Assembly: GCA_009841045.1 (NCBI GenBank)
Contig: VXMO01000028.1
Location: 2,916-66,915 of the forward strand
Direction of reading: 5' to 3'
From: Dehalococcoidia bacterium
GTDB lineage: Bacteria; Chloroflexota; Dehalococcoidia; UBA6926
DNA length: 64,000 bases
In this document: positions 10,219-58,084 of the stretch, in pieces
Numbering within the stretch: position 1 is the stretch's first letter
Layout: each line of letters opens with the position of its first letter
The notes under the pieces: generated by a model
Database searches by the model: none
What the model saw: the letters and a program-made list of their open reading frames with translations, nothing else
Told to the model about the DNA's origin: nothing
Made by a program: the position numbers and the translations under genes

Positions 10219-10934
10219 TCAGCGTTGAGACGGTCAAGGAGGTCCGGTAATTCCTCCAGTGAGCTAATCACGCGGGCATCCTTGTAGCCCTCGAAAACGC
10301 CATCCCTGTCGAGGAGGACGGGTAAAATGCCAACCCCCGCCGGGCCCTGCACGTCCGCGAGCGGCTGGTCGCCCACGTGGACAACCTCATCGGCCCCCGC
10401 CCCTGCCCGCTTCAAGGCCTCCTCGAATATCTCGGGGTTTGGCTTGGCAACACCGATCTCCTCCGACGTTACCGCAAAGGACATGAACTCAGCGATGCCG
10501 AGATCAAGCAGCGTCTGCGCCAAACCACCCTCGTAGTTGGTGACGACGCCGATGGAGTAACCCTTCTCACGGAGCGCCTGCAGCGACGGCACAACATCCG
10601 GGAACATCGCAAAGCCTTGCCGCGTCTCCCACACGCGCTCGAATATGCGGCTCGCCAACTCAAGATCCACCGTCACTCCCGCGCCGGCCAGCAGCAGCAT
10701 CTCATACCGCCCCCACAGCTCCCTCACGTCCTCGGGCGTGCGCCGACTCAGCGGGAGTTTCCCATTCTCCTCAGAGAGGAATTGATCGGCGGCAGGATAG
10801 GCGCGGAGGACGGCATTCGTATCGACCGTGATGTCGAATTCAGCGCAGGCGGCGGCCTGAATCTGCTCGCGTCGTGGCTCGAACCTGACGACGGTGTTGT
10901 AGAAATCCAGAGAGACCGCCCGAATACGCGCCAT
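10206..10934 (-). CDS. HAD-superfamily hydrolase
   Basis: Motif I (VSLDFYNTVV), motif III/IV (VHVGDQ...D). The start is taken at ATG 10934 (alternative 10946). The ORF track extends the start to 11039. Confidence 0.7.
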   Translation of the reverse strand: MARIRAVSLDFYNTVVRFEPRREQIQAAACAEFDITVDTNAVLRAYPAADQFLSEENGKLPLSRRTPEDVRELWGRYEMLLLAGAGVTVDLELASRIFERVWETRQGFAMFPDVVPSLQALREKGYSIGVVTNYEGGLAQTLLDLGIAEFMSFAVTSEEIGVAKPNPEIFEEALKRAGAGADEVVHVGDQPLADVQGPAGVGILPVLLDRDGVFEGYKDARVISSLEELPDLLDRLNAEWTS

Positions 10935-11000
10935 AGCAATTCTCATCGTACCATCGGCGGGTTTTCCGTTAGTTCTTTTAGAAGTAAGTGGAAGTGCGCT

Positions 11001-11030
11001 CCGTTCGCCTTGAGCCTGTCGAAGTGCGCT
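11001..11030. repeat. dispersed element family B copy (diverged) flanked by a 10-bp direct repeat GAAGTGCGCT
   Basis: CCGTTCGCCT-TGAGCCTGTCGAAG-TGCGCT. GAAGTGCGCT occurs at 10991-11000 and 11021-11030. Confidence 0.5.
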
Positions 11031-11219
11031 GCCGCTCATGGTCCGACAAGCCCACCACGAGGGGGCAAAAACCCTTGACCCAAAGCCTGTTCAGAACGTA
11101 GCATGACGCAATCCGACGGCCATGCGGGGAGGCAGGGAACGCTGATTTTTCGGCTCCTGCACAATGAGGGGAGAGAGGCTCAACGTCTCTGTCACAAGCG
11201 TGAATTACAGGGAGGTGCA

Positions 11220-11474
11220 ATGAACTCCAGCCTGATCAGCAAGATCGAGAAGGCGCGGAAGTACGCCGAGGAGCGGGACGACCGTATCAGGTTCGAGTCG
11301 TTTCGCGCCCGAATCGTCGGCGACAACAGTGAGCACATCGTCGAACTTAAGGACGGCGTGTTCACGTGCGACTGCGACTTCTTTGCAGGCTGGAGTTCTT
11401 GCAGTCATGTGATGGCCCTTGAGCGCATCCTGGGGGCGATGATCCCGGAGCCCCCCGTCCCGGAGCACCGCTAG
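11220..11474 (+). CDS. small SWIM-type zinc-finger protein (84 aa)
   Basis: ATG at 11220 follows AGGGAGGTG. CDCDFFAGWSSCSHVMALE fits the CxCx(n)CxH SWIM signature. Confidence 0.55.
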   Translation: MNSSLISKIEKARKYAEERDDRIRFESFRARIVGDNSEHIVELKDGVFTCDCDFFAGWSSCSHVMALERILGAMIPEPPVPEHR

Positions 11475-11487
11475 CCTGCACTACCCC

Positions 11488-11515
11488 GTCATTCCCGCGA
11501 AAGCAGGAATCCATC
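11488..11515. repeat. dispersed element family A copy (ATTCCCGC-GAAA-GCAGGAAT)
   Basis: It lies between the convergent SWIM and HIT genes. Confidence 0.6.
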
Positions 11516-11519
11516 CGGC

Positions 11520-12014
11520 TCAGAGCTTCTCAAACAGCGGCTTTAGCCGCGCGTAGGTCTGATCCAGGCTTTCCGGCACCAGTTTCGTCTCGCCGACGAC
11601 GGCCATGAAGTTGGTGTCGCCGCCCCACCGTGGAACCACGTGCAAGTGCAGATGGCCCGGCACGCCCGCGCCCGCTAGCTGGCCGATGTTCATTCCGACG
11701 TTGAACCCGTCCGGCCCATACTCCTCTTTGATGATGCCGACGCTCCGCTGGGCAAGCGCCCACATCTCCGCTCCGGTCTCCGGCGGCAGTTCCTCCAGCG
11801 CGCCGATATGAGCATAGGGCGCAATCATCAGGTGGCCGGAGTTGTACGGATAGAGATTCAGAATGACGAACGAACGCTCCGCCCTGTGGAGGATGTAGGT
11901 CTCGTCGTCCTTGTCGAGGGTCGGATTCTCACAGAGGAAGCAGGCGGGCGCACCCTGTTCTCCGGTCTGGCCGGTCACGAATTCCGCTCTCCACGGGGTC
12001 CAGAGCCGTTCCAT
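11520..12014 (-). CDS. HIT family protein
   Basis: HIT motif HLHLHVVPRW, an N-terminal CFLCE, 164 aa. Confidence 0.75.
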   Translation of the reverse strand: MERLWTPWRAEFVTGQTGEQGAPACFLCENPTLDKDDETYILHRAERSFVILNLYPYNSGHLMIAPYAHIGALEELPPETGAEMWALAQRSVGIIKEEYGPDGFNVGMNIGQLAGAGVPGHLHLHVVPRWGGDTNFMAVVGETKLVPESLDQTYARLKPLFEKL

Positions 12015-27479: not shown

Positions 27480-29864
27480 CTAGCCCAAAGCCTCCACAAG
27501 AATCTCAATGTTTCTGCGGAACATGGTCAGGTACGTGTCTGCGCCGCTGCCCGCCGGTCCAAGGGAGCCGGTGAAGAGGGAGTAGAAGCCCGCTCCTGTT
27601 TCGTCGGCAATCGTACGCGCGATCCGTTCAGGGACCGTGTTCTCTCCGAAGACCGCCGGAACCCCCTCGTGCTCGATAATCTCGACGAGCTCAGCAAGCT
27701 GCTCCGCTGATGACTCCGTTTCCGTCGTTCCACTGGGAATCACCGTTCCCACCACTTCAAAGCCGTACAGCAAAGCAAAGTAGCTGTGCGTATCGTGCGA
27801 GGTGACGAGGATGCGGTGGTCGGCAGGGATTGTGGCAACCTGCTGCTCGCTCCACGCGTGGAGCTCTTGCAACTGGGCCACATAGGCCGTGGCGTTAGCG
27901 GTGTAGGTCTCCGCGCCGGCCGGATCCATCATCGCCAGACGAGTGGCGATGTCAATGACCGCGGTCTGGACTCGAATCGGGTCAAACCAGAAGTGAGGAT
28001 CGTGCGTACCGTGGTCATGATCGTGGTGATCATGGTCGTCGTGCTCGTCCTCGTCTTCGTGGTCGTCATCCTCGTCGTGGTCATGCTCATCTTCATGGGC
28101 GTGCTCGTCCTCATGATGGTCATCAACGCCCAATCCGACGAAGGCGATGCTGCGAGGCTGCCCGCCGATGGGCCACGTGCGCTCAATCTCCCCATGTGGA
28201 AGATGGAACTCAATGATCTGGCCGCCAACCCTGTCTGAAAGGTACAGAAACTCGCCAACGACGATGAACGACGGAGAGTTGCTGCCTTCGAATGCCTCTA
28301 CAAGCTCGTAGGTTTCCTCTACTTCGCCGTGCTCCACGTGGATGACGTTCAAGAGCCCATCGTATGTCAGTACGTACAGATGCTCACCATGAGCGTCAAA
28401 AGCCGCGCTGCGCACGGTCTTCTCAGCAGTTGGAGGCAGGACGAGCGACATTTCATCGCCCTCGGCGTCAATCATCCAGAGTCCGCCGTTCAGGCGAGCG
28501 CCGCCTTCCTCACTGTATGAGGCAGAGCCGAAGAAGTACTCGGAATCGTGATGCCCCCACAGAGTGCCAATGCGGGCCGCCGGATTCATGTCGGCCGGGT
28601 TCTCAATGAACGAATGCTCATATTCGCCGAAATGGGCATGAATGAACAACACTCCGCCGGCGCAGCCGAACACCGTGCCATGCGCATTGCTAGCCTCGCC
28701 GTGGAGGGCCGGGCATGCGCGGGACGCCCCGTCAAAGACGACATCGCCGCCCATCGTCCAGACCTCCGCCCCGAGCGGCAAGCTGCTTGTGCCCGAAACA
28801 CTCGGGTAGTCCGGATTGTTGGTCGTCACCAGAACGTTTCCATCCTCCAACACGATGCCTGCGCCGTGCTGCAGACCTGCCTCCAGCCAGGCCGGTTCGT
28901 ACTCGTTGAGCTCTTCTATCAGGTCGTGCTCCTCGAACAGAGCGATTCGACCCGACCCGTCATGGAAGATTGCCGTCCAGCCTGCATGAGGGTTGAAGTG
29001 GATAGGCCGGTTGTCAGTTGTGCCTACGGTCAGCCGCGAAACGGAATCCGTGACCAGGTCGAAGTGATCGCCGTGTTCCTCAAGGTAGATGCCGCCATCA
29101 AAGATGTGGACGCGGTCGTCATTGGCGGCATCATCTCCCGGTCCGCGGGCGAGAGCAAAGGCAAAGCGTCCGCTTGGGCTCGTGTAGAGCGTTGCCGCGG
29201 GCGCCGCCACCTGCAGGCTCCCCTCATCCAACTGTTCCGTTGTGAGGTCCAGGACGGACACGGTGGCGGAGTCTCCGTCCGCGATGAGAAGTCGGCCCGT
29301 GAGGTCCTCATGGCCCATCTCGTCCATGTGATCGTCATGGTCGTCATGCTCATCGTGATGGGCGCCGGTTTCCGCGAATTCAATCGGATTCACAGCTTCA
29401 GCGAGAGCAATGATCTTTGACTCGTCCGTGCTTGCGTTGTGGATGAGCTCCTCAAGCCACTGGCCCTCCAGCTGAAGACCAACGGTAAATACCAGGTCAG
29501 CATCCACAATGTTCGCAACATCTCGCGCGCCGGGCTGGTACGTATGCGGGTCGCCGCCCGGCGGGATGAGGCTCGTCACCTCTACGCGATCTCCGCCGAT
29601 ATTCTTGATCCAGTCGCCGACGATGTTGCTCGTCGCGATCACCTGCAGTGGCTCGTGATCCATCTGGGTATCCCCGGATGATCCGGTCTGCGATGTGTCG
29701 GTCTGCCCCGTGGTGGACGATGTATCAGCGGGTTGTGGTGTCGCTGTAGGATCGTCCTCGCTTTCGCACGCTGCAACGGCCAGGACCATTGCAAGCGCGA
29801 GAGTTAGTAACAAGAGGCCAAATGCTCTCGCTGGAATCAGCCTCCGTACTCCAAATGCCTTCAT
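27480..29864 (-). CDS. ZnuA/AztC-type metal-ABC-transporter substrate-binding lipoprotein with a large (about 390 aa) beta-propeller-like insertion in the His-rich loop
   Basis: Lipobox LAVAAC. N-lobe of cluster-A-I SBPs (IATSNIVGDWIKNIGG...DPHTYQP). His-rich stretch HHDEHDDHDDHMDEMGHED, then the insert with repeated xDGxxL/YVLTYDG-like strand motifs. Second stretch DDHHEDEHAHEDEHDHDEDDDHEDEDEHDDHDHHDHDHGTHDPHFWFDP, then the ZnuA C-lobe (ILVTSHDTHSYFALLYG...). Confidence 0.7.
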   Translation of the reverse strand: MKAFGVRRLIPARAFGLLLLTLALAMVLAVAACESEDDPTATPQPADTSSTTGQTDTSQTGSSGDTQMDHEPLQVIATSNIVGDWIKNIGGDRVEVTSLIPPGGDPHTYQPGARDVANIVDADLVFTVGLQLEGQWLEELIHNASTDESKIIALAEAVNPIEFAETGAHHDEHDDHDDHMDEMGHEDLTGRLLIADGDSATVSVLDLTTEQLDEGSLQVAAPAATLYTSPSGRFAFALARGPGDDAANDDRVHIFDGGIYLEEHGDHFDLVTDSVSRLTVGTTDNRPIHFNPHAGWTAIFHDGSGRIALFEEHDLIEELNEYEPAWLEAGLQHGAGIVLEDGNVLVTTNNPDYPSVSGTSSLPLGAEVWTMGGDVVFDGASRACPALHGEASNAHGTVFGCAGGVLFIHAHFGEYEHSFIENPADMNPAARIGTLWGHHDSEYFFGSASYSEEGGARLNGGLWMIDAEGDEMSLVLPPTAEKTVRSAAFDAHGEHLYVLTYDGLLNVIHVEHGEVEETYELVEAFEGSNSPSFIVVGEFLYLSDRVGGQIIEFHLPHGEIERTWPIGGQPRSIAFVGLGVDDHHEDEHAHEDEHDHDEDDDHEDEDEHDDHDHHDHDHGTHDPHFWFDPIRVQTAVIDIATRLAMMDPAGAETYTANATAYVAQLQELHAWSEQQVATIPADHRILVTSHDTHSYFALLYGFEVVGTVIPSGTTETESSAEQLAELVEIIEHEGVPAVFGENTVPERIARTIADETGAGFYSLFTGSLGPAGSGADTYLTMFRRNIEILVEALG

Positions 29865-30046
29865 TCTGTCTCCCTACCCTCTGTGGGTTGATGCTTGGCG
29901 GCCTCGACTAACCGCATTTGTCTGCCTTCTTTTTGAGATACAGTGTCAGTTTTCTCTTCGATCCACTCCGTCGATGTACGATAGCATCTATCCCGTTTCC
30001 TACTGCGCTTACACGGGGTTAGTCGCCTTTGCAGACAGGTTCATAT

Positions 30047-30059
30047 GATACTGAGTATC
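30047..30059. promoter_or_regulatory. perfect palindrome GATACTGAGTATC in a divergent promoter region (candidate operator)
   Basis: AT-richer 380-bp region between the divergent ZnuA-like and Cache-lipoprotein genes. The palindrome is seen directly, its function is inferred. Confidence 0.2.
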
Positions 30060-30247
30060 ACATTTCTCCAAGCGCCCACGTCACTTCGGAAGCGGAACAA
30101 ACAACGATACCCAAACCCCGAAAGGGGTGTCAATAGTATTGAGATTTGCAGGTGATCACCAGCCTCACAATGAGTCACCTTCGTACAATGGATTGATCGT
30201 GCCAGAGGCGCTCATTCAGCCGACCCGGGACTTGGCGTACAATATCA

Positions 30248-31207
30248 GTGATAATGACATTTGTTGCTCCATTCAATCTATTGAAGTGGCTCATGCAACG
30301 CATTCTTCTCATAGCTCTGCTGATTGCCGTGGTCGTGACCGCCACACTGCTGGCGGCCTGCTCTGACGAATCGTCTGAACCAACGACGGAGGCGGAACCG
30401 GGAGAGGTCGGCGCTCAAGACGGCACAATCACCGTGTCAAAGGACCAACCTCTGGCCTACGCGCAGGCATTGGTCCAGCAAGCGATTGACCGCTACGGCA
30501 CGGATGGACGCCAGGCAACCATCGACTTCTATAACTCCGAGGAAAGCCTCGATGGTGATTGGCATGTGTTCATCCTCGATGAAGCGGGATACATCGCGTC
30601 CATGGCAGCGTTCCCTGCTTGGGTTGGCGTCCATGATTCCGAGTTCAAGGGATACAAGGACTACCCCGCCGGGCAGATGGTGATCGACGGCGCACACGAG
30701 GAAGGCATCCAAATCGATTACCTCGCCAGGGATTTCTTTGGCAACATCGACCTCAATCATCTTTGGGTCGTCAAACACGATGGACTGGTATTTGCCTCGT
30801 CGTCGTGGTCCGGCGAGGAAATATCGAAGTCGGACCAGCCCGGGTACACGCAAGAACAGGTCAGGCTGGCGATAGGGCTCTATGAAGCGTCCGGCCTGCA
30901 GGCGGCACTCGACTACTACAACAGCCCGGACAGCGTTGACGAGCAATGGTACACGTTCATCGTGGACACGGAGACTGGACGCACAATCGGACACTTCAAT
31001 CCTGACCTGCGTGATCGTGACCCAAGTTTACGCGTCGACTCCACCGGATACTTCTACGGGGATGATCTTCTGGGAGCAACGGAGTCCGGCGACTGGATCC
31101 AGTACGTGATCACGAACCCTGACAATGGTGAAGAACAGCTCAAACACACGTGGGCCGTCCTGCACGATGGCTACATCTTCGCCTCCGGCTGGTACGAAGA
31201 CCCGTAG
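30248..31207 (+). CDS. lipoprotein with two tandem sCache_2-like extracytoplasmic sensor domains (no output domain)
   Basis: Signal and lipobox LLAAC (alternative ATG at 30293). Two repeats of about 140 aa with the pattern YxFxxDxxG...G...DxxGY..G..gxWxxYxxxNPxxG...KHxWxxxHDGxIFxSGWYED. Confidence 0.6.
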   Translation: MIMTFVAPFNLLKWLMQRILLIALLIAVVVTATLLAACSDESSEPTTEAEPGEVGAQDGTITVSKDQPLAYAQALVQQAIDRYGTDGRQATIDFYNSEESLDGDWHVFILDEAGYIASMAAFPAWVGVHDSEFKGYKDYPAGQMVIDGAHEEGIQIDYLARDFFGNIDLNHLWVVKHDGLVFASSSWSGEEISKSDQPGYTQEQVRLAIGLYEASGLQAALDYYNSPDSVDEQWYTFIVDTETGRTIGHFNPDLRDRDPSLRVDSTGYFYGDDLLGATESGDWIQYVITNPDNGEEQLKHTWAVLHDGYIFASGWYEDP

Positions 31208-31267: not shown

Positions 31268-32569
31268 ATGACCAATTCTATTGCCGTCTATAACGTCATC
31301 TCCAGGCGGATAGGGCAGGCTGCGCTGCCAATGCTTCTATTCCTCACTTTGGGGATGCTGGCATTGTCGTTCGGCTGCACTGAGCAACAGGCAGACGATC
31401 TGGCGGCTATTGATGCCCCGAGGAGTCAGCCCACCGCGTACACGCAGGCATACGTACAGGCCGCTATCGATTACTACGAGGCCAACGGACTTGATGAAAC
31501 TGTCAACCATTACAACGATCCCGCCAGCGTTGACGGTCAGTGGTACATCTTCATTGCCGATGAGACCGGGCGCCTCATCGTGCACGGCGCGAACCAGGAC
31601 CTGGTTGGCGTGCCCCTGGACGATGTCATTGACGGGAATGGCTACCCATCGGGCCGAATTGTGGCCAATGATGCTGACGAAGGCGGCGCATGGTCGGAGT
31701 ACGTGTTCTTCAATCCCGCCACCGGCCGTTCACAGGCTAAGCATTCGTGGCTGGTCATCCACGATGGCCTTATCTTCGGCTCCGGCTGGTACGAGGACGG
31801 CCCGCGCAAGTCTGAACAGCCGGCTTACACGCAGGAATATGTGCGCCAGGCATTGAACCTGTATGACTCTTTAGGCCGTGAAGCCCTTGTCGACTATTAC
31901 AACAATCCCGTCAGCATTGATGGCCAGTGGTACATGTTCATCACCGATGAAAGCGGACGCCTCATCGTTAATGGCGCGAACCAGGACCTGATTGGCATGC
32001 CCCTTGTTGACGTCGTCGGGGCGAACGGCTACCCGTCTGGTCGGATCGTGGCGGATGACGCGGATGAAGACGGCGAATGGTCCGTGAACACCTTTTTCAA
32101 CCCTGCCACAGGCCGCTCCCAGATCAAGCACCCGTGGCTGGTCAGACATGATGGTCTGATCTTCGCCTCCGGCTGGTACGAGGACGGCCCGCGCAAATCG
32201 GAACAACCGGCGTACACGCAGGCGCTCGTTCAGCAGGCGCTGAATCTCTATGATTCCTCCGGCCTGGACGTGGCGATTGAGTACTATAGCGATCCTGTCA
32301 GCGTGGACGGCCCATGGTATGTCGGCATCATTGATGCTGAGACGGGACGGACAATCGCCCACTTCAACCCCGATGTGCGAGATCGCGACCCTGCTCTACG
32401 CGTCGATTCGACGGGGTACTTCTACGGAGATGACCTGCTTCGTGCAACGGAGGAGGGTCATTGGTTCGAAGTCGTATTCCACAACCCGGCTACCGGCCAA
32501 GAGGAGCGTAAACATTCGTGGGCCGTCCTGCACGACGGCTACATCTTTTCGTCCGGCTGGTACGAATAA
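31268..32569 (+). CDS. lipoprotein with three tandem sCache_2-like domains, paralogue of the preceding gene
   Basis: Signal and lipobox LSFGC. Three repeats each starting PAYTQ...V.QA...Y and ending SGWYEDGPRKSEQ. Confidence 0.6.
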   Translation: MTNSIAVYNVISRRIGQAALPMLLFLTLGMLALSFGCTEQQADDLAAIDAPRSQPTAYTQAYVQAAIDYYEANGLDETVNHYNDPASVDGQWYIFIADETGRLIVHGANQDLVGVPLDDVIDGNGYPSGRIVANDADEGGAWSEYVFFNPATGRSQAKHSWLVIHDGLIFGSGWYEDGPRKSEQPAYTQEYVRQALNLYDSLGREALVDYYNNPVSIDGQWYMFITDESGRLIVNGANQDLIGMPLVDVVGANGYPSGRIVADDADEDGEWSVNTFFNPATGRSQIKHPWLVRHDGLIFASGWYEDGPRKSEQPAYTQALVQQALNLYDSSGLDVAIEYYSDPVSVDGPWYVGIIDAETGRTIAHFNPDVRDRDPALRVDSTGYFYGDDLLRATEEGHWFEVVFHNPATGQEERKHSWAVLHDGYIFSSGWYE

Positions 32570-40726: not shown

Positions 40727-40770
40727 CCCTCTCCCTCGGGGAGAGGGCTAGGGTGAGGGGGCTAGCCCCC
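40727..40770. repeat. dispersed element family D copy (CCCTCTCC-loop-GGAGAGGG plus GGGGG-CTAG-CCCCC)
   Basis: Near-identical to 53881-53915. The second hairpin contains the priA stop codon. Confidence 0.55.
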
Positions 40771-44963: not shown

Positions 44964-45470
44964 TTAAGTCTGCTGCGTCGGATGCTCGTCCGTGCGCGGC
45001 TGGGTCAGCACCTCAAGAACGTGGGGCAGGACGGGCATGAGGATATCCAGGCACTCCTGCACGGCCTTTGGACTGCCGGGGAGATTGACGATCAGAGTCT
45101 GGCCGCGAATGCCCACGACCTGTCGGGATGTCATCGCCATCGGCGTCTTGTCGAAGGTCTGCGCGCGCATCTGTTCCGCCATTCCCGGCACCAGACGATC
45201 CACCACGTCCAGCGTCGCCTCCGGGGTCACGTCCCTTGGCCCGACGCCCGTTCCGCCAGTGGTCACAATGAGCGCAACGTCGCCATCATCCGCCCAGGAG
45301 CGCAGTTGCGCTGCAATAACGGCCCGATCATCCGGCGTGATGACTTTTTCGGATGCGATCCAGCCCTCTGCGGCAACAAGCTCTTCTATCAATTTACCGC
45401 TTCGGTCTGCCCGGTCTCCGGCAGCCCCCGAATCGCTCGCAACAAGGACGGCAACACGAATATCAGTCAT
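44964..45470 (-). CDS. mogA: molybdenum cofactor biosynthesis protein MogA/MoaB family
   Basis: GGTG motif (IVTTGGTGVGPRD), 168 aa. Confidence 0.8.
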   Translation of the reverse strand: MTDIRVAVLVASDSGAAGDRADRSGKLIEELVAAEGWIASEKVITPDDRAVIAAQLRSWADDGDVALIVTTGGTGVGPRDVTPEATLDVVDRLVPGMAEQMRAQTFDKTPMAMTSRQVVGIRGQTLIVNLPGSPKAVQECLDILMPVLPHVLEVLTQPRTDEHPTQQT

Positions 45471-45544: not shown

Positions 45545-46390
45545 TCAGAGCATCCGGGAGTTGGTGTCATCAATGGTTGGATAGGCCAGATCAAGGGCGG
45601 CGCCAAGGGCTATCTTGAACTTGTCCCTATCTGAATTCGTCCACGTTTCCCCGTGCCTGGGCAGGACCTCAAGCAACCCGAGAATGGTCGGATGAATCCC
45701 ATCCTGGTGAATAACGCTGTTTTCGTTTACCGGTAGGGAATTTTCGGAAACGATTTCATTTTTCGGTTGCTCTGCCTCATTTTCGGCTCGTCCATCAGAT
45801 TCTTTTCGGTTGGTGGCAGTTTTTCGCCGTGTCCTTGTCCCTTGAACGCGCGAAAAAAGACTCTGATGAAGTTCGATTCCGGCATCCCTGGCAAAGGAAA
45901 CGAAAAAGCTGATGGCCTTGTCCGCAGTCGAACTCCCGGATCCGGCGGCTCTGAACGCCTGTTGTATCTGCTGGCGCGTCGCCCGGGGCAGGTCGATGCC
46001 CTCAAGCAGCGGCCCGTAGTTCTCATCAAACAGGGCTGCAAGGAGCTGCCGCTTCGCCTCCTCGCTCGATGATCTGGCAAGCGTTTCAAGTCGCCTATCA
46101 TCCGTTTTCCCCTGTGGGTCCGTCAGACCCAGAAAAAGGAGAGCGCCCTGGATGGCAGAACGCGTTGAACCTGAGAACGGCGTATTTCGCCAAACGCTGC
46201 TGTCCAGCCGGTCCGGCAATGGATCGAGGTCGGTCTTCACGAAAGCAAGAAATGTCTCCCAGCTCCTGTAAGAGCCGTAGGGAGGCGCAACTCCGCGCGA
46301 TCTTGCGTTTGTTGTCACGTGTCCACTTCCCGAAATGAATTTTTCGCTGACACAATCATCCACCAGTTTTTCGCCCACTGTCAACATCAT
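45545..46390 (-). CDS. hypothetical protein in a low-GC segment
   Basis: The start is trimmed to the ATGATG at 46390/46387, because the ORF-track start would overlap rsmH. The region 45650-46450 is markedly AT-richer, with repeated TTTTCG. No identifiable domain. Confidence 0.4.
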   Translation of the reverse strand: MMLTVGEKLVDDCVSEKFISGSGHVTTNARSRGVAPPYGSYRSWETFLAFVKTDLDPLPDRLDSSVWRNTPFSGSTRSAIQGALLFLGLTDPQGKTDDRRLETLARSSSEEAKRQLLAALFDENYGPLLEGIDLPRATRQQIQQAFRAAGSGSSTADKAISFFVSFARDAGIELHQSLFSRVQGTRTRRKTATNRKESDGRAENEAEQPKNEIVSENSLPVNENSVIHQDGIHPTILGLLEVLPRHGETWTNSDRDKFKIALGAALDLAYPTIDDTNSRML

Positions 46391-46561
46391 GATTTCGTCC
46401 ACGTTTCGTGACGTTTTTCGTTGAGTGGACACAGTGTGACAAATTCTTGAGGATGGCGGCATTTCGGTGTCAGGATTGTTCGTGCGACGGGGAAAAGGGA
46501 CGCGCGGGAATACCCACCCAGCGCCCCTGGACACAGAAGGATCGGGAGCAAGGAGGGAGTC

Positions 46562-47503
46562 ATGGTGGCGAATTCGCATATCTACCATGTCCCTGCCCTA
46601 TTGGACGAGGTCATCGAAACGCTTCAGCCGTATGCCGGTGGGAAGTACATCGACTGCACGCTCGGAGAGGGATCCGTCACTGAGGCGCTTCTCTCCGCAG
46701 GCGCGCAGGTACTGGGCATGGATGCTGACCCGGAGATGCTTTCGTCAGCGGCGCGCCGTTTGGGGGACCTGCCGAATGCGCAATACACGCTGGTACAGGC
46801 GAACTTCGCGTCCCTTAAAGAGGTGGCAGTCGCACACGGCTTTACGCAGGCGCAGGGAATTATCTTGGACGTTGGCCTGTCTTCTCGGCAGTTGCAGGCC
46901 ATTAGTCGCGGCTTCACATTCCAGGAAGATCAGCCACTGGACATGCGGTATGACCCTCGGCAAGACGTCACCGCCGCAGACCTGGTGAATGATCTCCCGG
47001 AGCAGGAGCTTATCGACCTCCTCAGGACGTACGGCGAGGAGGACACGTGGTCGGCCCTGTCCATCGCGAGGACAGTAATGGGGAGGCGGCCACTGAACAC
47101 GACACGCGAACTCGTTGAGTGCATCGAGCTCGCAATCGGGCAGCGCAGCGCGGCGCGAATACACCCGGCCACCAAGACCTTCATGGCGCTTCGGATGGTC
47201 GTCAACGCAGATCTCCAGGCCCTGGAGTCGGCCCTCCCGCAGGCACTGGAGCTGTTGGCCCCTGGTGGCAAATTGGCCGTCATCGGGTACCAGAGTTTGG
47301 AGGATCGCATTATCAAGCGGTTCCTCCACCAGGAGGCAAAGGACTGCCTCTGCCCTCCTGCCCAACCGGTCTGCACGTGTGATCACACGGCGACGGTCAA
47401 GCTGGCACGGCGGCAGGGAATCACCCCATCCATCGCTGAGATTGCGCGCAACCCCGCAAGCCGTTCGGCCCGGCTGCGGACCGCGGAGCGCGTCGCGGCG
47501 TAA
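46562..47503 (+). CDS. rsmH: 16S rRNA (cytosine1402-N4)-methyltransferase
   Basis: HIPVLLDEV...DCTLGEG SAM motif. ATG follows GGAGGGAG. Confidence 0.9.
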   Translation: MVANSHIYHVPALLDEVIETLQPYAGGKYIDCTLGEGSVTEALLSAGAQVLGMDADPEMLSSAARRLGDLPNAQYTLVQANFASLKEVAVAHGFTQAQGIILDVGLSSRQLQAISRGFTFQEDQPLDMRYDPRQDVTAADLVNDLPEQELIDLLRTYGEEDTWSALSIARTVMGRRPLNTTRELVECIELAIGQRSAARIHPATKTFMALRMVVNADLQALESALPQALELLAPGGKLAVIGYQSLEDRIIKRFLHQEAKDCLCPPAQPVCTCDHTATVKLARRQGITPSIAEIARNPASRSARLRTAERVAA

Positions 47504-52367: not shown

Positions 52368-52441
52368 CGGGGCGTAGCGCAGCCCGGCAGCGCGCCTGCT
52401 TTGGGAGCAGGAAGTCCCCGGTTCAAATCCGGGCGCCCCGA
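52368..52441 (+). tRNA. tRNA-Pro (anticodon TGG)
   Basis: Acceptor stem CGGGGCG/CGCCCCG, D-arm AGCGCAGCCCGGCAGCGC, anticodon loop CTTTGGGAG, T-arm GGTTCAAATCC. CCA is not encoded. Confidence 0.85.
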
Positions 52442-53875: not shown

Positions 53876-53880
53876 GGATC

Positions 53881-53915
53881 CCCTCTCCCTGAAGGAGAGG
53901 GTTGGGGTGAGGGGG
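53881..53915. repeat. dispersed element family D copy
   Basis: CCCTCTCC-CTGAA-GGAGAGGG then GTTGGGGTGAGGGGG. Matches 40727-40770. Confidence 0.55.
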
Positions 53916-54290: not shown

Positions 54291-54339
54291 TTCCCCAACC
54301 CCATTACTATGGACAAAGCAACTGCAAATGGGAGGAACT

Positions 54340-55137
54340 ATGCCCGGCCTGCATGAATTCAGCCTTGACGGAAAGACGGCAATCGTCACCGGCGCCGGTC
54401 AGGGAATCGGCAAGGGCATCGCCCTCGCGCTTGCCGAGGCCGGAGCGGACGTTGTCGTCGCCGGCATCACTGTCGCGGACCGCTCGCGTTCAGAGGCCGA
54501 CCTTGAAGCAACGGCGGATGAGATACGTCTCCTTGGCCGCTCTGCCCTGCCCGTCGTCACGGACGCCCGCGACGCCACAGATGTTCAAGCGCTGATTGAC
54601 GCCGCGCTTGCGGAGTTCGACAGTCTGGACATCATGGTCAACAACGCGGGCGGCAGCTTCTACGCCCGTTTCCCGGACATCAGTGAGGGCGGCTTTGAGG
54701 CAATCGTCCGCAACAACCTCAAGAGCACATTCCTGTGCTGCCAAGCCGCGGGAGCCGTTATGCGTGAACGAGAGACCGGTGTCATCATCAACCTCTCATC
54801 CGGCGCGGCATTTTCCGGCTCCATCGCCCAGCCTGTCTACGCCGCCACCAAGGCGGGCATCACCAACCTCACGCAAACGCTGGCCGCCGAGTTCGCCCCC
54901 CACGTCCGCGTCGTCGCCTTGGCCCCCGGACTCACGGACACCGTCGGCATGAGAGCGGGCTACGGCGACGAGGCCGAGGCAAGAGTCGCGGCACAGGCCC
55001 AGACCATGGCCGCCAAGCGCCTCGCCACACCGCGAGACATGGGGCTGGCCTGCGTCTTCCTCGCCAGCGACGCCGCGTCCTATGTCAGCGGCATCACCCT
55101 GCGCGTCGACGGCGGCGGACGCGCCGCCGACGACTAA
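54340..55137 (+). CDS. SDR family oxidoreductase
   Basis: ATG follows GGGAGGAAC. TGAGQGIGKG cofactor loop and YAATKAG catalytic YxxxK. Confidence 0.85.
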   Translation: MPGLHEFSLDGKTAIVTGAGQGIGKGIALALAEAGADVVVAGITVADRSRSEADLEATADEIRLLGRSALPVVTDARDATDVQALIDAALAEFDSLDIMVNNAGGSFYARFPDISEGGFEAIVRNNLKSTFLCCQAAGAVMRERETGVIINLSSGAAFSGSIAQPVYAATKAGITNLTQTLAAEFAPHVRVVALAPGLTDTVGMRAGYGDEAEARVAAQAQTMAAKRLATPRDMGLACVFLASDAASYVSGITLRVDGGGRAADD

Positions 55138-55152
55138 TCTTGGAGAGAATCC

Positions 55153-55920
55153 ATGCCGGATTTCATCGACCTTCTGGAACAATTCAATCGTAAAGAGCGC
55201 TTCTTCCTGTTTCTCCGAGCGACAGGAGAAGACGAGCTCAGACTTTCGGCTGCCTTTAGGGAGCAACTGAGTCAAGAAATTGGCATTCCAGTACCTGAGA
55301 CTGCGTACGCGGCCACGGACTACCATCTTGATTGGTTGGCGGCAAGTGTCGTTGCCTATCAACATGAGCAAGCCGGCAAGCAATTCCTTGGGAATATTTT
55401 CCCCAATCACGGGGAACAGAAGATCGTCACAGGCAGCCAAGAAGACATCGACCTCTTGGTGGCTTTTCCAGCACAGGATGGTTTCCATATTGTCCTTGTT
55501 GAGGCGAAGGGTTACGAAAGATGGAGCATCAGTCAACTCAATAGCAAGGCTGAACGATTGAAGCGGATTTTTCCCAATCCAGGCAAAGATGGCATAACGC
55601 CCCACTTTTGTCTGGCGTCCAATGCGACTTCGCGTCCACCGAGGGGGAATAAAGTCACGCTTTGGCCCGAGTGGATGCGTAAGCACACTGAGCCATATTG
55701 GATAGAACTTGATTTGCCAAGAATGCGCCGTAGCGTGACAAGAACAGACAAGCTCGGCAATAGAACCAAGCGGGGCAGAATGTTCAAGATAGTAACGCTG
55801 GAGGACAACAAAGTTCGACGAACACAAGATAGGAGATTTGAGAAAGGTACTCCAAATCGTCTGACAAGGACAGGACAGAAAGATAGGCGTTACAGGGTCA
55901 ACCGAAAGTCTAACTTATGA
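55153..55920 (+). CDS. hypothetical protein with a PD-(D/E)xK nuclease-like motif and a basic tail, in a low-GC segment
   Basis: DIDLLVAFPAQDGFHIVLVEAKGYE (D...ExK). C-terminal 80 aa very Arg/Lys-rich. GC about 50% against about 65% in the flanks. Confidence 0.5.
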   Translation: MPDFIDLLEQFNRKERFFLFLRATGEDELRLSAAFREQLSQEIGIPVPETAYAATDYHLDWLAASVVAYQHEQAGKQFLGNIFPNHGEQKIVTGSQEDIDLLVAFPAQDGFHIVLVEAKGYERWSISQLNSKAERLKRIFPNPGKDGITPHFCLASNATSRPPRGNKVTLWPEWMRKHTEPYWIELDLPRMRRSVTRTDKLGNRTKRGRMFKIVTLEDNKVRRTQDRRFEKGTPNRLTRTGQKDRRYRVNRKSNL

Positions 55921-57140
55921 CCCTCGACGATACCCTTTCCGAGGAGCTGCGCATCCTGCGCCACTCCGTGCGTGAGCTGGTGCGGGATAAGGTCGCTCCC
56001 CGCGCATGGCAGATCGACCAGGACCGCGACTATCCGGAGGATGTCTTTGCAGCCTTTCGCGATCAGGGCCTGTTCGCCTTGGCGCTCCCTGAGAACGAGG
56101 GTGGAACGGACGCAGGAACGATGGGCCTCGCCATCGCCGTCGAAGAGGTTGCGCGGGCCTGCGCCTCCTCCGCGCAGATACTCATACTCTCCGCGCTCGT
56201 CACGTGGCCGATGCGACTCTTCGGCACGGATGATATGCGACAAAACTATGTCCACGCTGTCGCGGACGGCAGCAAGCGCGGCTCCTTCGCCCTGACCGAA
56301 CCCAACGCCTCCTCCGATCTCGGCTCCATGGTCACACGTGCCGAGAAAGACGGCCCCGACTACATACTCAACGGAGAAAAGGACTTCATCAGCGGCTCCC
56401 CGCAGGCGGATTTCTTCATCGTCTTTGCCGGCGCGGGCGATAACGCAGACATGCGAGAAAGCATGACCGCGTTCCTCGTCGATGTCCCGCAGCCCGGCGT
56501 CATCTTTCTCCGCCGCGATGAGGGCATGGGCCTCAAGGGGATGCCCCACTGCGATTGGTCGTTTGACAACTGCCGCACGCCGGAGTCGCATCTAATCGGC
56601 GGCATTGGGAAAGGAGAGGAGATCGCCCGCCTCAGCATGAACGCCATCCAGCCGCTGCTCGCCGCCCGTGGACTCGGCGCGGCGGAGGAGGCGCTGGCAT
56701 TCGCGCGCGACTACGCCAACACGCGCCGCATCTACGGCGGCCTGCTCGCAGACCTGCAGACCACCCAGCTCCACCTTGCTGAGATGGCCGTCAACGTCGA
56801 AGCAACACGGCTGCTAACCTATCAGGCCGCGCGCATGGTGGACGAAGACCGGTTCCGTGACGAAGTCGACGCCGCCTACCTGAACGCCGCCAAACTCATG
56901 TCCGCTCGTACCGCCGTCCACGCAACCGATCACGCCATGCAGGCCGTCGGCGGCCACGCCTATATGGAAGTCCACCCGCTGGAGCGCATGTACCGTGACG
57001 CCCGCCACCTGGGCCTCTACATGGGTACGAGCGAGGTGCTCAGCCTGCGCGTCGCCCGTTCAGTGCTGGACGGCTCGCTCGGCTACGGGCCGTCCGTCTC
57101 TCGCCAATCAACCGAGGAACGTTCGCGTCGGCAGGGGTAG
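55917..57140 (+). CDS. acyl-CoA dehydrogenase
   Basis: 407 aa. ACAD N, middle and C domains, with the catalytic region near YAATKAG absent but the ACAD signature GGHAYMEVHPLERMYRDARHLGLYMGTSE present. Confidence 0.85.
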   Translation: MTLDDTLSEELRILRHSVRELVRDKVAPRAWQIDQDRDYPEDVFAAFRDQGLFALALPENEGGTDAGTMGLAIAVEEVARACASSAQILILSALVTWPMRLFGTDDMRQNYVHAVADGSKRGSFALTEPNASSDLGSMVTRAEKDGPDYILNGEKDFISGSPQADFFIVFAGAGDNADMRESMTAFLVDVPQPGVIFLRRDEGMGLKGMPHCDWSFDNCRTPESHLIGGIGKGEEIARLSMNAIQPLLAARGLGAAEEALAFARDYANTRRIYGGLLADLQTTQLHLAEMAVNVEATRLLTYQAARMVDEDRFRDEVDAAYLNAAKLMSARTAVHATDHAMQAVGGHAYMEVHPLERMYRDARHLGLYMGTSEVLSLRVARSVLDGSLGYGPSVSRQSTEERSRRQG

Positions 57141-57152
57141 GATAAGGGGGTG

Positions 57153-57188
57153 CCCGCTCATCCTGAGCCTGTCGAAGGATGAGAGCGG
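57153..57188. repeat. dispersed element family B copy
   Basis: CCCGCTCATCC-TGAGCCTGTCGAAGG-ATGAGAGCGG. It sits between the ACAD stop and the MBL-gene RBS. Confidence 0.6.
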
Positions 57189-57202
57189 ATAGGAGGGGTA
57201 GG

Positions 57203-58084
57203 ATGTCCGAATTCACGATGCAGGTCGGCGATGCGGAAATCATCGCCGTGACGGACATGAACATCATCTATCCGCGGCCATTGCCGGAGCTTTTCCCTGC
57301 CGTGCCCGTTGAGGCGTGGGACGCGTATCGGGAAGAATTCGCGGACACGTTCGCGGGCAACCACATCCGGTTGGAAATCGGCTGCTACGTCGTTCGCTCG
57401 CAGGGGCGGACAATTCTCATTGACACCGGCTACGGCCCCGGCCCCATAGAGGGAGAACTCGGCCAACTTATGGACAATCTATCCGCCGCCGGGGTTGAGG
57501 CCGGTGACGTGGATGTGGTCTTCTTCTCGCATCTTCACCCCGACCACACCGGCTGGAACACGGTTTGGGGAGAAGCGGAAGAAATTCCCACTGAGCCAAC
57601 GTTCCCCAACGCGCGCTATGTTGTGCACGAGCTTGATCTTGAACACTTTCGCAAGCCGGAGACGCAGGCGGCAATGTCGTTCCCGTTCATGTACCGCGAC
57701 GTGGAGCCGCTGGACACACTCGGAATCCTGGACACGATCGATGAAGACACGAACCTCACGCCCGAGGTGAGAGCAGTTCACACTCCCGGCCACACACCGG
57801 GTCACATGAGTGTCGTCGTTGAGTCCGGCGGCCAGGACGCCATCATCCAGGGCGACATATTCATCCACCCTGCGCAGGTTGTTGAGGACGAGTGGAATTG
57901 CATCTTTGACGTCGATTGGCCGTTGGCAACCGAGGTGCGTCGCAAGATGCTGGACGACGCCGCTGACAAAGGTACGCCGCTGATCTCCTGCCACTTTCCC
58001 CTGCCCGGTTTCGGTCGAATCGGCCGCAAGGGAGGCAAGAGGTACTACCAGGTCGGCCTGGACATCATGCCGGTCAACAACTAG
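57203..58084 (+). CDS. MBL-fold metallo-hydrolase
   Basis: ATG follows AGGAGGGG. HLHPDHTG (HxHxDH) motif. Confidence 0.8.
   Translation: MSEFTMQVGDAEIIAVTDMNIIYPRPLPELFPAVPVEAWDAYREEFADTFAGNHIRLEIGCYVVRSQGRTILIDTGYGPGPIEGELGQLMDNLSAAGVEAGDVDVVFFSHLHPDHTGWNTVWGEAEEIPTEPTFPNARYVVHELDLEHFRKPETQAAMSFPFMYRDVEPLDTLGILDTIDEDTNLTPEVRAVHTPGHTPGHMSVVVESGGQDAIIQGDIFIHPAQVVEDEWNCIFDVDWPLATEVRRKMLDDAADKGTPLISCHFPLPGFGRIGRKGGKRYYQVGLDIMPVNN

Follow-up and report, generated by a model that had tools for sequence, protein, structure and literature searches.

A very probable PD-(D/E)xK-fold protein of an unnamed family occupies a polymorphic slot between two metabolic genes in Dehalococcoidia

Solitary occurrence and lateral acquisition are known for Type IV restriction enzymes such as Mrr (PMC3152355). 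Homing endonuclease genes can also be free-standing, and homing enzymes of the PD-(D/E)xK type exist (PMC3384342); in the immigration control region alternative restriction systems lie between conserved flanks at a fixed chromosomal position (PMC10059834). The locus analysed here resembles each of these in part. It lies in a 64,000-nucleotide stretch of contig VXMO01000028.1 from a Dehalococcoidia bacterium (Chloroflexota; assembly GCA_009841045.1), referred to as the window, and consists of one open reading frame (ORF) at 55153-55920, called gene X, between the genes of a short-chain dehydrogenase/reductase (SDR) and an acyl-CoA dehydrogenase (ACAD). W denotes the window genome and its allele, and L-numbers denote loci of related genomes. 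The slot between SDR and ACAD is a long-lived polymorphism, either empty or filled by one of several X alleles, which recombination reshuffles also within the gene. The X protein very probably has a restriction-endonuclease-like fold with intact catalytic residues, as judged from alignments and predicted structures. Its role is more tentative: with a rough probability of 0.4, X serves as an accessory nuclease of the restriction type that acts by itself, has no need of a methyltransferase and is Type IV-like or otherwise self-sparing.

Gene X is compositionally foreign. Its GC content is 0.493 and its GC content at third codon positions (GC3) 0.516, against 0.664 and 0.790 for SDR and 0.648 and 0.797 for ACAD. 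The lowest 600-nt GC of the whole window falls in its region (0.50, against a mean of 0.615 with a standard deviation (sd) of 0.027), and its GC3 lies about 4 sd under the mean of the 54 window ORFs (0.734, sd 0.053). A preliminary description, made from the DNA letters alone, had pointed to this drop from about 0.65 for exactly one gene, and its account of the junctions also proved accurate: the ATG of gene X is the 16th base past the SDR stop codon (55135-55137), and the TGA stop of gene X shares the sequence ATGA at 55917-55920 with the ACAD start, an overlap predicted to couple translation of gene X to that of ACAD. The ratio of nonsynonymous to synonymous divergence (dN/dS) is 0.15-0.19, and gene X is thus a genuine gene under purifying selection. 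An antisense ORF of 343 aa (54796-55827, minus strand), which covers the 3' part of SDR and most of gene X, was rejected because all homology support lies on the plus strand; it is most likely a by-product of composition. No terminal inverted repeats, target-site duplication or transposase were found around the gene X ORF, where repeats are only chance-sized. The insert is essentially a bare ORF with about 15 nt, and a transposon or insertion sequence was discarded on these grounds, as flanking inverted or direct repeats are missing.

The closest homologues of X occupy the identical slot (SDR-X-ACAD), with the wider gene order alike. Among 11 related genomes, five lineages are occupied (W, L105, L002, L018 and L001) and six junctions are empty (L093, L094 and L107-L110). 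The L105 protein is 89% identical to that of the window and shares its C-terminal tail; L002/L003 carry allele B (61-64% identical, no tail), L018 carries allele C (about 49%, no tail) and L001 allele D (57%, with tail). The four alleles found in the slot are 49-65% identical. SDR is 88-94% identical in the relatives whether X is present or not, and ACAD orthologues are 82-94% identical with empty or occupied junctions alike. By empty junction, ACAD identity is about 90-94% in L093, L107, L108 and L109, 82% in L110 and 65% in L094. The preliminary description had proposed to look for relatives in which this junction lacks the gene. Six such junctions exist, but other, equally close relatives are occupied, and wherever X was measured in occupied relatives of this clade (L001, L002, L105) it is low in GC, rather than at the normal GC that would have spoken against a recent acquisition.

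The empty junctions have spacers of 30-36 nt, except that of L109 (109 nt). The spacers of L093, L107 and L108 (31-36 nt) are homologous to each other and unrelated to the sequence around X; therefore, one state replaces the entire intergenic cassette of the other. In the occupied state, the spacers upstream of X in L002, L105 and L001 resemble the 15-nt spacer of the window. The ATGA overlap recurs in L001 and L105, and a 9-nt gap replaces it in L002. As a separate observation, the L109 spacer (2392-2500) contains a palindromic element, CCCCTCTCCC-TTTG-GGAGAGGGTTAGGGTGAGGG, of which copies 89-91% identical occur in two intergenic places of the window (40727-40760 and 53878-53914). It looks like a small dispersed repeat of the repetitive extragenic palindrome (REP) or miniature inverted-repeat transposable element (MITE) type.

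The sharp one-gene GC drop would suit a single recent horizontal insertion specific to the window genome, and a recent one-off acquisition is what the preliminary description had supposed. This explanation has become scarcely credible. The same slot is occupied in L105, L002/L003, L018 and L001, whose flanking proteins are 84-95% identical to those of the window; the occupants form one clade in the family tree (bootstrap 155/200); and their alleles are old, divergent and mosaic. Between W and L105, the synonymous divergence (dS) of X is 0.34 and equals that of the flanks (0.37-0.56; X dN/dS 0.18), so the synonymous rate of X is normal. Between W and L002, flank dS is 0.42-0.57 and X dS reaches 1.77 (proportion of synonymous differences, pS, 0.68; X dN/dS 0.15). 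The idea that X simply evolves fast was rejected, since the values of 0.34 and 1.77 were obtained at the same host distance. Relative to the genomic backbones around them, alleles A and B are several times as old. Sharp edges are seen in the alignments of W with L002 and L018, where nucleotide identity is 0.83-0.93 up to both ORF edges and 0.4-0.7 inside X only.

Recombination has also acted inside the gene. Over codons 1-70, identity is 0.78 between W and L105, 0.80 between W and L002, and 0.87, the flank level, between L105 and L002. Over codons 71-203, W and L105 are 0.93 identical (flank level 0.89), against 0.57 for W and L002 and 0.56 for L105 and L002, and over the tail codons 204-255 the three values are 0.96, 0.19 and 0.19. 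L105 is therefore a mosaic, B-like in codons 1-70 and A-like in codons 71-255, with a breakpoint at, and just 3' of, the conserved DYHLDWLAAS segment (about 55345-55363). In the flank-gene tree, occupied and empty genomes interleave: occupied L105 and empty L107 are sisters (200/200, distance 0.08) and come from the same sample, and occupied L001 and empty L110 are sisters too (200/200). A second, unrelated slot (Lar_N, MR_MLE, X, 118-aa gene) repeats the pattern, with X 49% identical against 86% for the flanks and with alleles that have or lack the tail.

Such a pattern would be expected if X were a chromosomal free-standing homing-type endonuclease that cuts the empty SDR-ACAD junction and is copied into it by recombinational repair. 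It would persist through cycles of invasion, divergence and loss, and a bare ORF embedded in an operon would keep the cost to the host low. The insertion of nothing but an ORF between two conserved genes agrees with this explanation, as do the precise empty alleles with their homologous spacer, the interleaving of presence and absence on the host tree even within one sample, a slot occupied solely by one clade of the X family, allele divergence out of scale with the flanks, and the second slot. PD-(D/E)xK homing enzymes such as I-Ssp6803I exist and free-standing homing endonuclease genes are known; like these, X is a discrete mobile ORF, predicted to have the restriction fold, with occupied and empty alleles at one precise site and an occupant phylogeny decoupled from host genes (PMC3384342). 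The co-conversion tract that homing should leave is not clear. The flanks of W and L002 show no divergence gradient toward the slot; L105 and L107 show a weak local excess of divergence there (identity 0.903 against 0.923, p = 0.013), and a delimited recombination tract around the slot was not accepted for this pair, the signal being weak and the whole region patchy. In addition, in six of nine synteny groups X, under purifying selection, diverges in step with its flanks, which indicates stable inheritance. X also bears no likeness to I-Ssp6803I, which is intron-encoded, smaller and unrelated in sequence, or to any other known homing endonuclease: sequence searches of Pfam and the PDB matched no homing family (LAGLIDADG, GIY-YIG, HNH, His-Cys box, I-Ssp6803I or EDxHD), and I-Ssp6803I is absent from the top 50 fold matches of both structural models described below. 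Homing at this locus is a serious but unlikely explanation.

The slot can also be compared with immigration control regions, with which it shares a fixed position, highly divergent nuclease alleles or nothing at all, and states that vary between close relatives (PMC10059834). Unlike those regions, which hold diverse multi-gene restriction-modification systems, it accommodates one small family as a bare ORF in an operon.

The X protein, alone and as a family profile, has no match in Pfam, NCBIfam, PADLOC-DB v2, PHROGs or the PDB sequences. The AlphaFold2 model of the window protein reached a predicted local distance difference test score (pLDDT) of 89.7 and a predicted template modelling score (pTM) of 0.81; a second, independent model, of a 208-aa family member, reached 93.5 and 0.88. 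Both have the same order of elements (window numbering): helix 33-43, strand 52-58, inserted helix 59-70, strands 98-107 and 110-119, helix 126-139 and strand 148-156, which reads as alpha, beta1, inserted helix, beta2, beta3, alpha, beta4, followed by a small beta-subdomain. In the models this is the PD-(D/E)xK topology, with the putative catalytic residues at canonical places: D100 opens the hairpin and E117-A-K119 closes it. The D...ExK arrangement that the preliminary description had picked out, DIDLLVAFPAQDGFHIVLVEAKGYE (residues 98-122), thus falls on a beta-hairpin within an alpha-beta-beta-beta-alpha-beta core. In 110 aligned homologues, N12, K14, E15, H58, D98, D100, E117, K119, W124 and W174 are invariant. 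The invariance of D100, E117 and K119 over more than 100 diverse members argues that catalysis is probably retained, and metal-dependent DNA cleavage by X would be expected from this motif and from the modelled fold.

Fold comparison points in the same direction through many weak matches. Foldseek searches of the PDB gave best E-values of 0.036 (window protein) and 0.023 (208-aa member), so that no single match is significant; PD-(D/E)xK nucleases nevertheless make up about 35 of the top 50 matches for one model and about 46 for the other. They include EcoO109I, BspD6I, MspJI, EcoRI, NgoMIV, McrC, HincII and BstEII, and also Cap4, Can2, DdmD, the R2 restriction-like endonuclease and EndoMS/NucS. 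A viral protein annotated as a PD-(D/E)XK nuclease matched X at a probability of 0.96, PDDEXK_4, Cap4_nuclease and NERD count the most members among the sub-threshold Pfam matches, and an hhalign comparison with the Cas4-like DUF2779 superposes the D...ExK hairpins at a non-significant E of 0.48, a likeness at motif level only. The nuclease-like fold proposed earlier is favoured by the ensemble of matches from two models, none of them significant individually. Relative to the superfamily represented by PDDEXK_4, Cap4_nuclease and NERD, X has in common the predicted element order, an invariant Asp opening beta2 and an invariant ExK closing beta3, and a Gln-containing helix after the hairpin, and its weak matches concentrate here. 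It differs in an extra N-terminal three-helix module with the FNRKERF motif, in the helix inserted between beta1 and beta2 and in a four-stranded C-terminal subdomain carrying WPxWM; moreover, no member family matches significantly, and no Pfam, NCBIfam, PADLOC or PHROG model covers X.

The X family is very probably new, lying outside every named family but within the known PD-(D/E)xK superfamily, as its sequences and models suggest. A word-indexed search returned 997 homologues, and an exhaustive profile search returned 1,298 clusters at 50% identity, of which 1,101 had E <= 1e-10. Members are mostly 200-230 aa long, none has a Pfam domain, and their only public name is 'hypothetical protein'; one protein identical to X (MYD36095.1) comes from a Dehalococcoidia metagenome-assembled genome. 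Scanning one genome for each of 185,579 species yielded 177 confirmed matches, mostly in Dehalococcoidia/Chloroflexota, with scattered matches in at least a dozen further bacterial groups, among them Binatia, Planctomycetota, Myxococcota, Gammaproteobacteria, Ignavibacteria, Nitrospirae and Gemmatimonadota, and a single archaeal match in Thermoplasmata; some genomes hold 2-4 copies. The GC of family genes is below that of the host in 67 of 80 loci, with a mean deficit of 5.7 points. This deficit and the patchy distribution make the horizontal origin sound, in agreement with the earlier view of a solitary, laterally acquired gene. The GC of the family genes themselves ranges from 0.31 to 0.70 across the 80 loci, and residence times therefore differ.

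The presence of several copies in some genomes would agree with the homing explanation. Searches of the family with tblastn against 72,556 plasmids and against 50,697 phages gave no match, and IMG/VR contained a single one (L092, 6001-6504, IMGVR_UViG_3300047160_007876), which is 37% identical and truncated at the contig end; plasmid or phage carriage of the family was rejected on these results. Near-absence from viral contigs and absence from the phage and plasmid collections weigh against homing, and a position between genes of a bacterial chromosomal operon, with essentially no phage members, sets X apart from known homing endonucleases. Known free-standing homing genes are mostly phage-borne. 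The wider claim, that the whole family consists of free-standing homing-type endonuclease genes spreading between bacterial chromosomes as bare ORFs in housekeeping-operon spacers, each site with its own multi-allele lineage, is doubtful.

The gene neighbourhood holds few signs of a defence system. In the window, gene X is accompanied by genes for a glyoxalase, SDR, ACAD, a metallo-beta-lactamase-fold protein and an M20 peptidase. As the preliminary description had stated, no methyltransferase or other partner gene adjoins gene X in the window; the neighbours are metabolic, and the space between the genes is too tight for a small antitoxin beside gene X. Across the family, the list of 25 Pfam families drawn up for the 142 immediate neighbours contains no methyltransferase family. 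DUF2779, which joins a Cas4-like nuclease to an RNase H-like exonuclease in one product, directly adjoins X in 10 of 87 loci, upstream or downstream and in several phyla (among them L036, L043, L047, L048, L050, L053, L059 and L074). DUF6508 adjoins X in seven loci and is fused to it in one protein (P0157), and an NYN RNase gene adjoins it in four. The DUF2779 and DUF6508 pairings may represent two-gene variants of the X system. An obligate partner gene was ruled out, as the top neighbour cluster reaches only those 10 loci: about 80% of X loci have no conserved partner, and about 20% have linked nuclease or unknown modules. In the literature, no mention of DUF6508 was found, and DUF2779 is described only as an uncharacterised Cas4-like and exonuclease fusion. 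For homing, the location of gene X among housekeeping genes and outside defence islands is favourable, while partner genes and fusions at about 20% of loci are atypical. Overall, homing accounts better than defence for three features, namely a bare ORF as the format, its place inside a housekeeping operon and a slot occupied by the X family only. It accounts less well for the partner genes, for vertical persistence over long times and for the lack of phage copies.

The pairing with DUF2779 raises another explanation, in which X is an accessory nuclease for DNA repair, recombination or particular DNA structures, or a domesticated derivative of one, and the polymorphism reflects ordinary turnover of accessory genes. 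Many PD-(D/E)xK enzymes that occur alone serve in repair, as do Vsr, MutH, NucS, RecU and Hjc. Long-term purifying selection with normal co-divergence in the six synteny groups would be expected of such an enzyme, and EndoMS/NucS is among the weak fold matches. Repair enzymes, however, are normally core genes at host GC, whereas X is present or absent among sister genomes, low in GC family-wide, rare (the 177 matches above) and represented by alleles far older than their flanks. A repair role is accordingly improbable.

The lack of any individually significant fold match leaves room for a non-catalytic protein, either a regulator with a decayed restriction fold that binds DNA or RNA, or a toxin from an abortive-infection or toxin-antitoxin-like module with an unrecognised partner. 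HicB and PIN genes occur near X in some loci, and one lineage joins a Cys-containing N-terminal extension of X with an overlapping NYN RNase gene. A decayed fold agrees poorly with D100, E117 and K119 being invariant, and a toxin agrees poorly with the scarcity of conserved partners and with the tight spacing in the window. This explanation is decidedly improbable in either form.

The C-terminal tail of the window protein needs redefinition. The preliminary description had proposed an 80-aa Arg/Lys-rich tail, and the last 80 residues do contain 32% Lys plus Arg, with a net charge of +17; residues 176-215, though, belong to the conserved and confidently folded core, and the true extension is about 40 aa (residues 216-255). 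Its motif, D.R[FY]E[KR]..P.R.T[KR].G.[KR]D[KR]RY..NR (residues 226-251, nt 55828-55905), occurs in seven of 280 retrieved members, from different subclades and different genomic slots. A profile search with a six-sequence tail alignment returned nothing and missed the parent proteins too, so it is uninformative on the tail as an independent module. Other members have other additions: DUF6508 is fused N-terminally in P0157, P0182 and P0258 have a common SH3/Tudor-like C-terminus, and P0128, P0129 and P0131 share another C-terminal module of about 90 aa. By such sequence comparison the tail appears as one of several optional accessory modules, and it would plausibly bind nucleic acid. In Binatia (L007/L009 7001-8427; L017, L019, L025), X has a 75-aa N-terminal Cys-containing extension, which we take to be a YgiT/MqsA-type zinc finger although it has no Pfam match, followed by an overlapping gene for an NYN-domain RNase; many separate proteins of 76-81 aa cluster with this extension.

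A restriction-type accessory nuclease without a methyltransferase, the preferred reading, would work as follows. The core of about 210 aa would adopt the PD-(D/E)xK fold with D100, E117 and K119 on the beta-hairpin, E15, H58 and Q128 being candidate additional active-site residues, and X would presumably act as a Mg2+-dependent DNA endonuclease. Host DNA would be spared through what X recognises, as for Type IV enzymes, or through another self-sparing property. Target specificity may be set by the variable C-terminal subdomain (residues 148-215, the most variable part between alleles, where A and B are only about 30% identical) together with optional additions, here the basic tail and elsewhere DUF6508, a zinc finger or an SH3/Tudor-like module. 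The accessory cassette, ORF and about 15 nt, would be one state of an old and still segregating SDR-ACAD polymorphism whose states, an empty junction or at least four alleles with or without the tail (49-65% identical), are reshuffled by recombination among related Dehalococcoidia genomes, inside the gene too. This role is preferred because solitary, laterally acquired PD-(D/E)xK enzymes of such a kind are well known (PMC3152355), because fixed chromosomal positions with alternative nuclease alleles have precedents (PMC10059834), because the family shows modular partners and fusions, and because many lineages inherit X stably under purifying selection. The concentration of allele variation in the C-terminal half and the nuclease or unknown modules linked to X in about 20% of loci are further hints toward defence or conflict.

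Several observations weigh against this role. No single sequence, profile or structure match to a known nuclease reaches significance, and no PADLOC model matches the X protein. The 142 immediate neighbours are overwhelmingly one-off metabolic or housekeeping genes; PADLOC matches occur in fewer than about 10 of them (a raw count), and X is therefore no resident of defence islands. Lacking promoter space of its own, X is predicted to be coupled into a metabolic operon, which is unusual for defence genes. The slot holds only the X family and never other systems, which fits a site-bound selfish lineage better than a defence hotspot. Finally, both the sparing of host DNA and the nuclease activity of X are putative.

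Comparison with described enzymes reflects the same balance. Unlike Type II restriction-modification systems, X has no cognate methyltransferase gene beside it. With the Type IV enzymes Mrr, MspJI and McrBC it shares a stand-alone, laterally acquired nuclease gene without methyltransferase and a predicted PD-(D/E)xK domain joined to variable recognition modules, and MspJI and McrC are among its weak fold matches. It differs in having no sequence match to the Mrr_cat, MspJI or McrC models, no detected modified-base reader domain (SRA, Mrr_N or similar) and no GTPase or ATPase partner, and in lying outside any restriction or defence locus. Uma2 (DUF820) genes are also small and solitary, have the restriction fold and, in Chloroflexota and Cyanobacteria, are often multi-copy. 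X resembles these genes, labelled 'putative restriction endonuclease', in size, solitary occurrence and predicted fold; it has no Pfam Uma2 match, and its motifs and architecture differ. In addition, L001 carries a Uma2 gene a few kb downstream.

If these assignments are true, the restriction-fold nucleases would gain a further, unnamed family, which has about 1,300 clusters and comes from an uncultured lineage that has been little studied. The slot offers an unusually clean natural experiment, with a bare operon ORF that is absent or present as several ancient, recombining alleles in near-identical genomes, some from the same sample. This pattern makes it testable whether solitary nucleases are kept by defence selection or by selfish homing, with the empty-site sequence in hand. 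For enzymology, too, a nuclease of one self-sparing protein with exchangeable recognition modules could be of interest. The features of the locus are collected in the table.

Table. Coordinates of gene X, its borders and the parts of its predicted product (window positions).
Feature	Residues	Position	Strand	Remarks
SDR, left border of the slot		54337..55137	+	Pfam adh_short, adh_short_C2, E ~1e-49
Spacer TCTTGGAGAGAATCC		55138..55152	+	15 nt; GGAGAG (55142-55147) is the ribosome-binding site; moves together with the X cassette
Gene X	1-255	55153..55920	+	ATG start; 255 aa
N-terminal three-helix module	1-45	55153..55287	+	invariant FNRKERF (N12, K14, E15); best conserved part between alleles
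Strand beta1 and start of next helix, DYHLDWLAAS	52-61	55306..55335	+	H58 invariant, D56 nearly so
Putative catalytic beta-hairpin	98-119	55444..55509	+	strands 98-107 and 110-119; D98, D100, E117, K119
Helix 3' of the hairpin	126-139	55528..55569	+	conserved Q128, K132; invariant W124 just ahead of the helix
C-terminal beta-subdomain of the core	148-215	55594..55797	+	basic; pLDDT >90; conserved WPxWM segment, W183, R197, F211
Optional basic C-terminal extension	216-255	55798..55917	+	35% Lys plus Arg; lower model confidence
ACAD, right border of the slot		55917..57140	+	Pfam Acyl-CoA_dh_N, _M, _1

Other parts of the window and the corresponding regions of its relatives vary as well. The only RNA element found in an Rfam scan is a tRNA (52368-52441, plus strand) between PAC2 and MFS genes. 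At this position the relatives have additional genes, namely a HicB-like one (L001, L002, L105) and, in L001 (2346-5130), also a UvrD_C fragment with two hypothetical genes. This tRNA spot looks like a second variable site about 3 kb upstream of X. On the other side of the slot, L001 has an extra 131-aa gene on the minus strand between ACAD and the metallo-beta-lactamase-fold gene, and the latter (10582-11520, corresponding to 57179-58084 in the window, the second gene downstream of X) is anomalously divergent at 68% identity, against 84-89% for its neighbours, which suggests another replaced segment.

A second solitary low-GC gene lies at 45545-46588 on the minus strand. It encodes 347 aa without a Pfam match, has a GC of 0.546 and a GC3 of 0.575, about 3 sd under the window mean, and is flanked by genes that we take to be MogA-like (44964-45470) and RsmH-like (46562-47503). 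At 29500-31200 the GC also dips to about 0.51. Here lie a divergent intergenic region and the leading member (30248-31207) of a tandem pair of paralogues encoding secreted repeat proteins; this leading member has a weak sCache_2 match, and the other is at 31268-32569. Upstream of this pair, on the minus strand (27480-29864), a gene encodes a 794-aa protein with long His/Asp-rich tracts that looks like a metal-binding lipoprotein.

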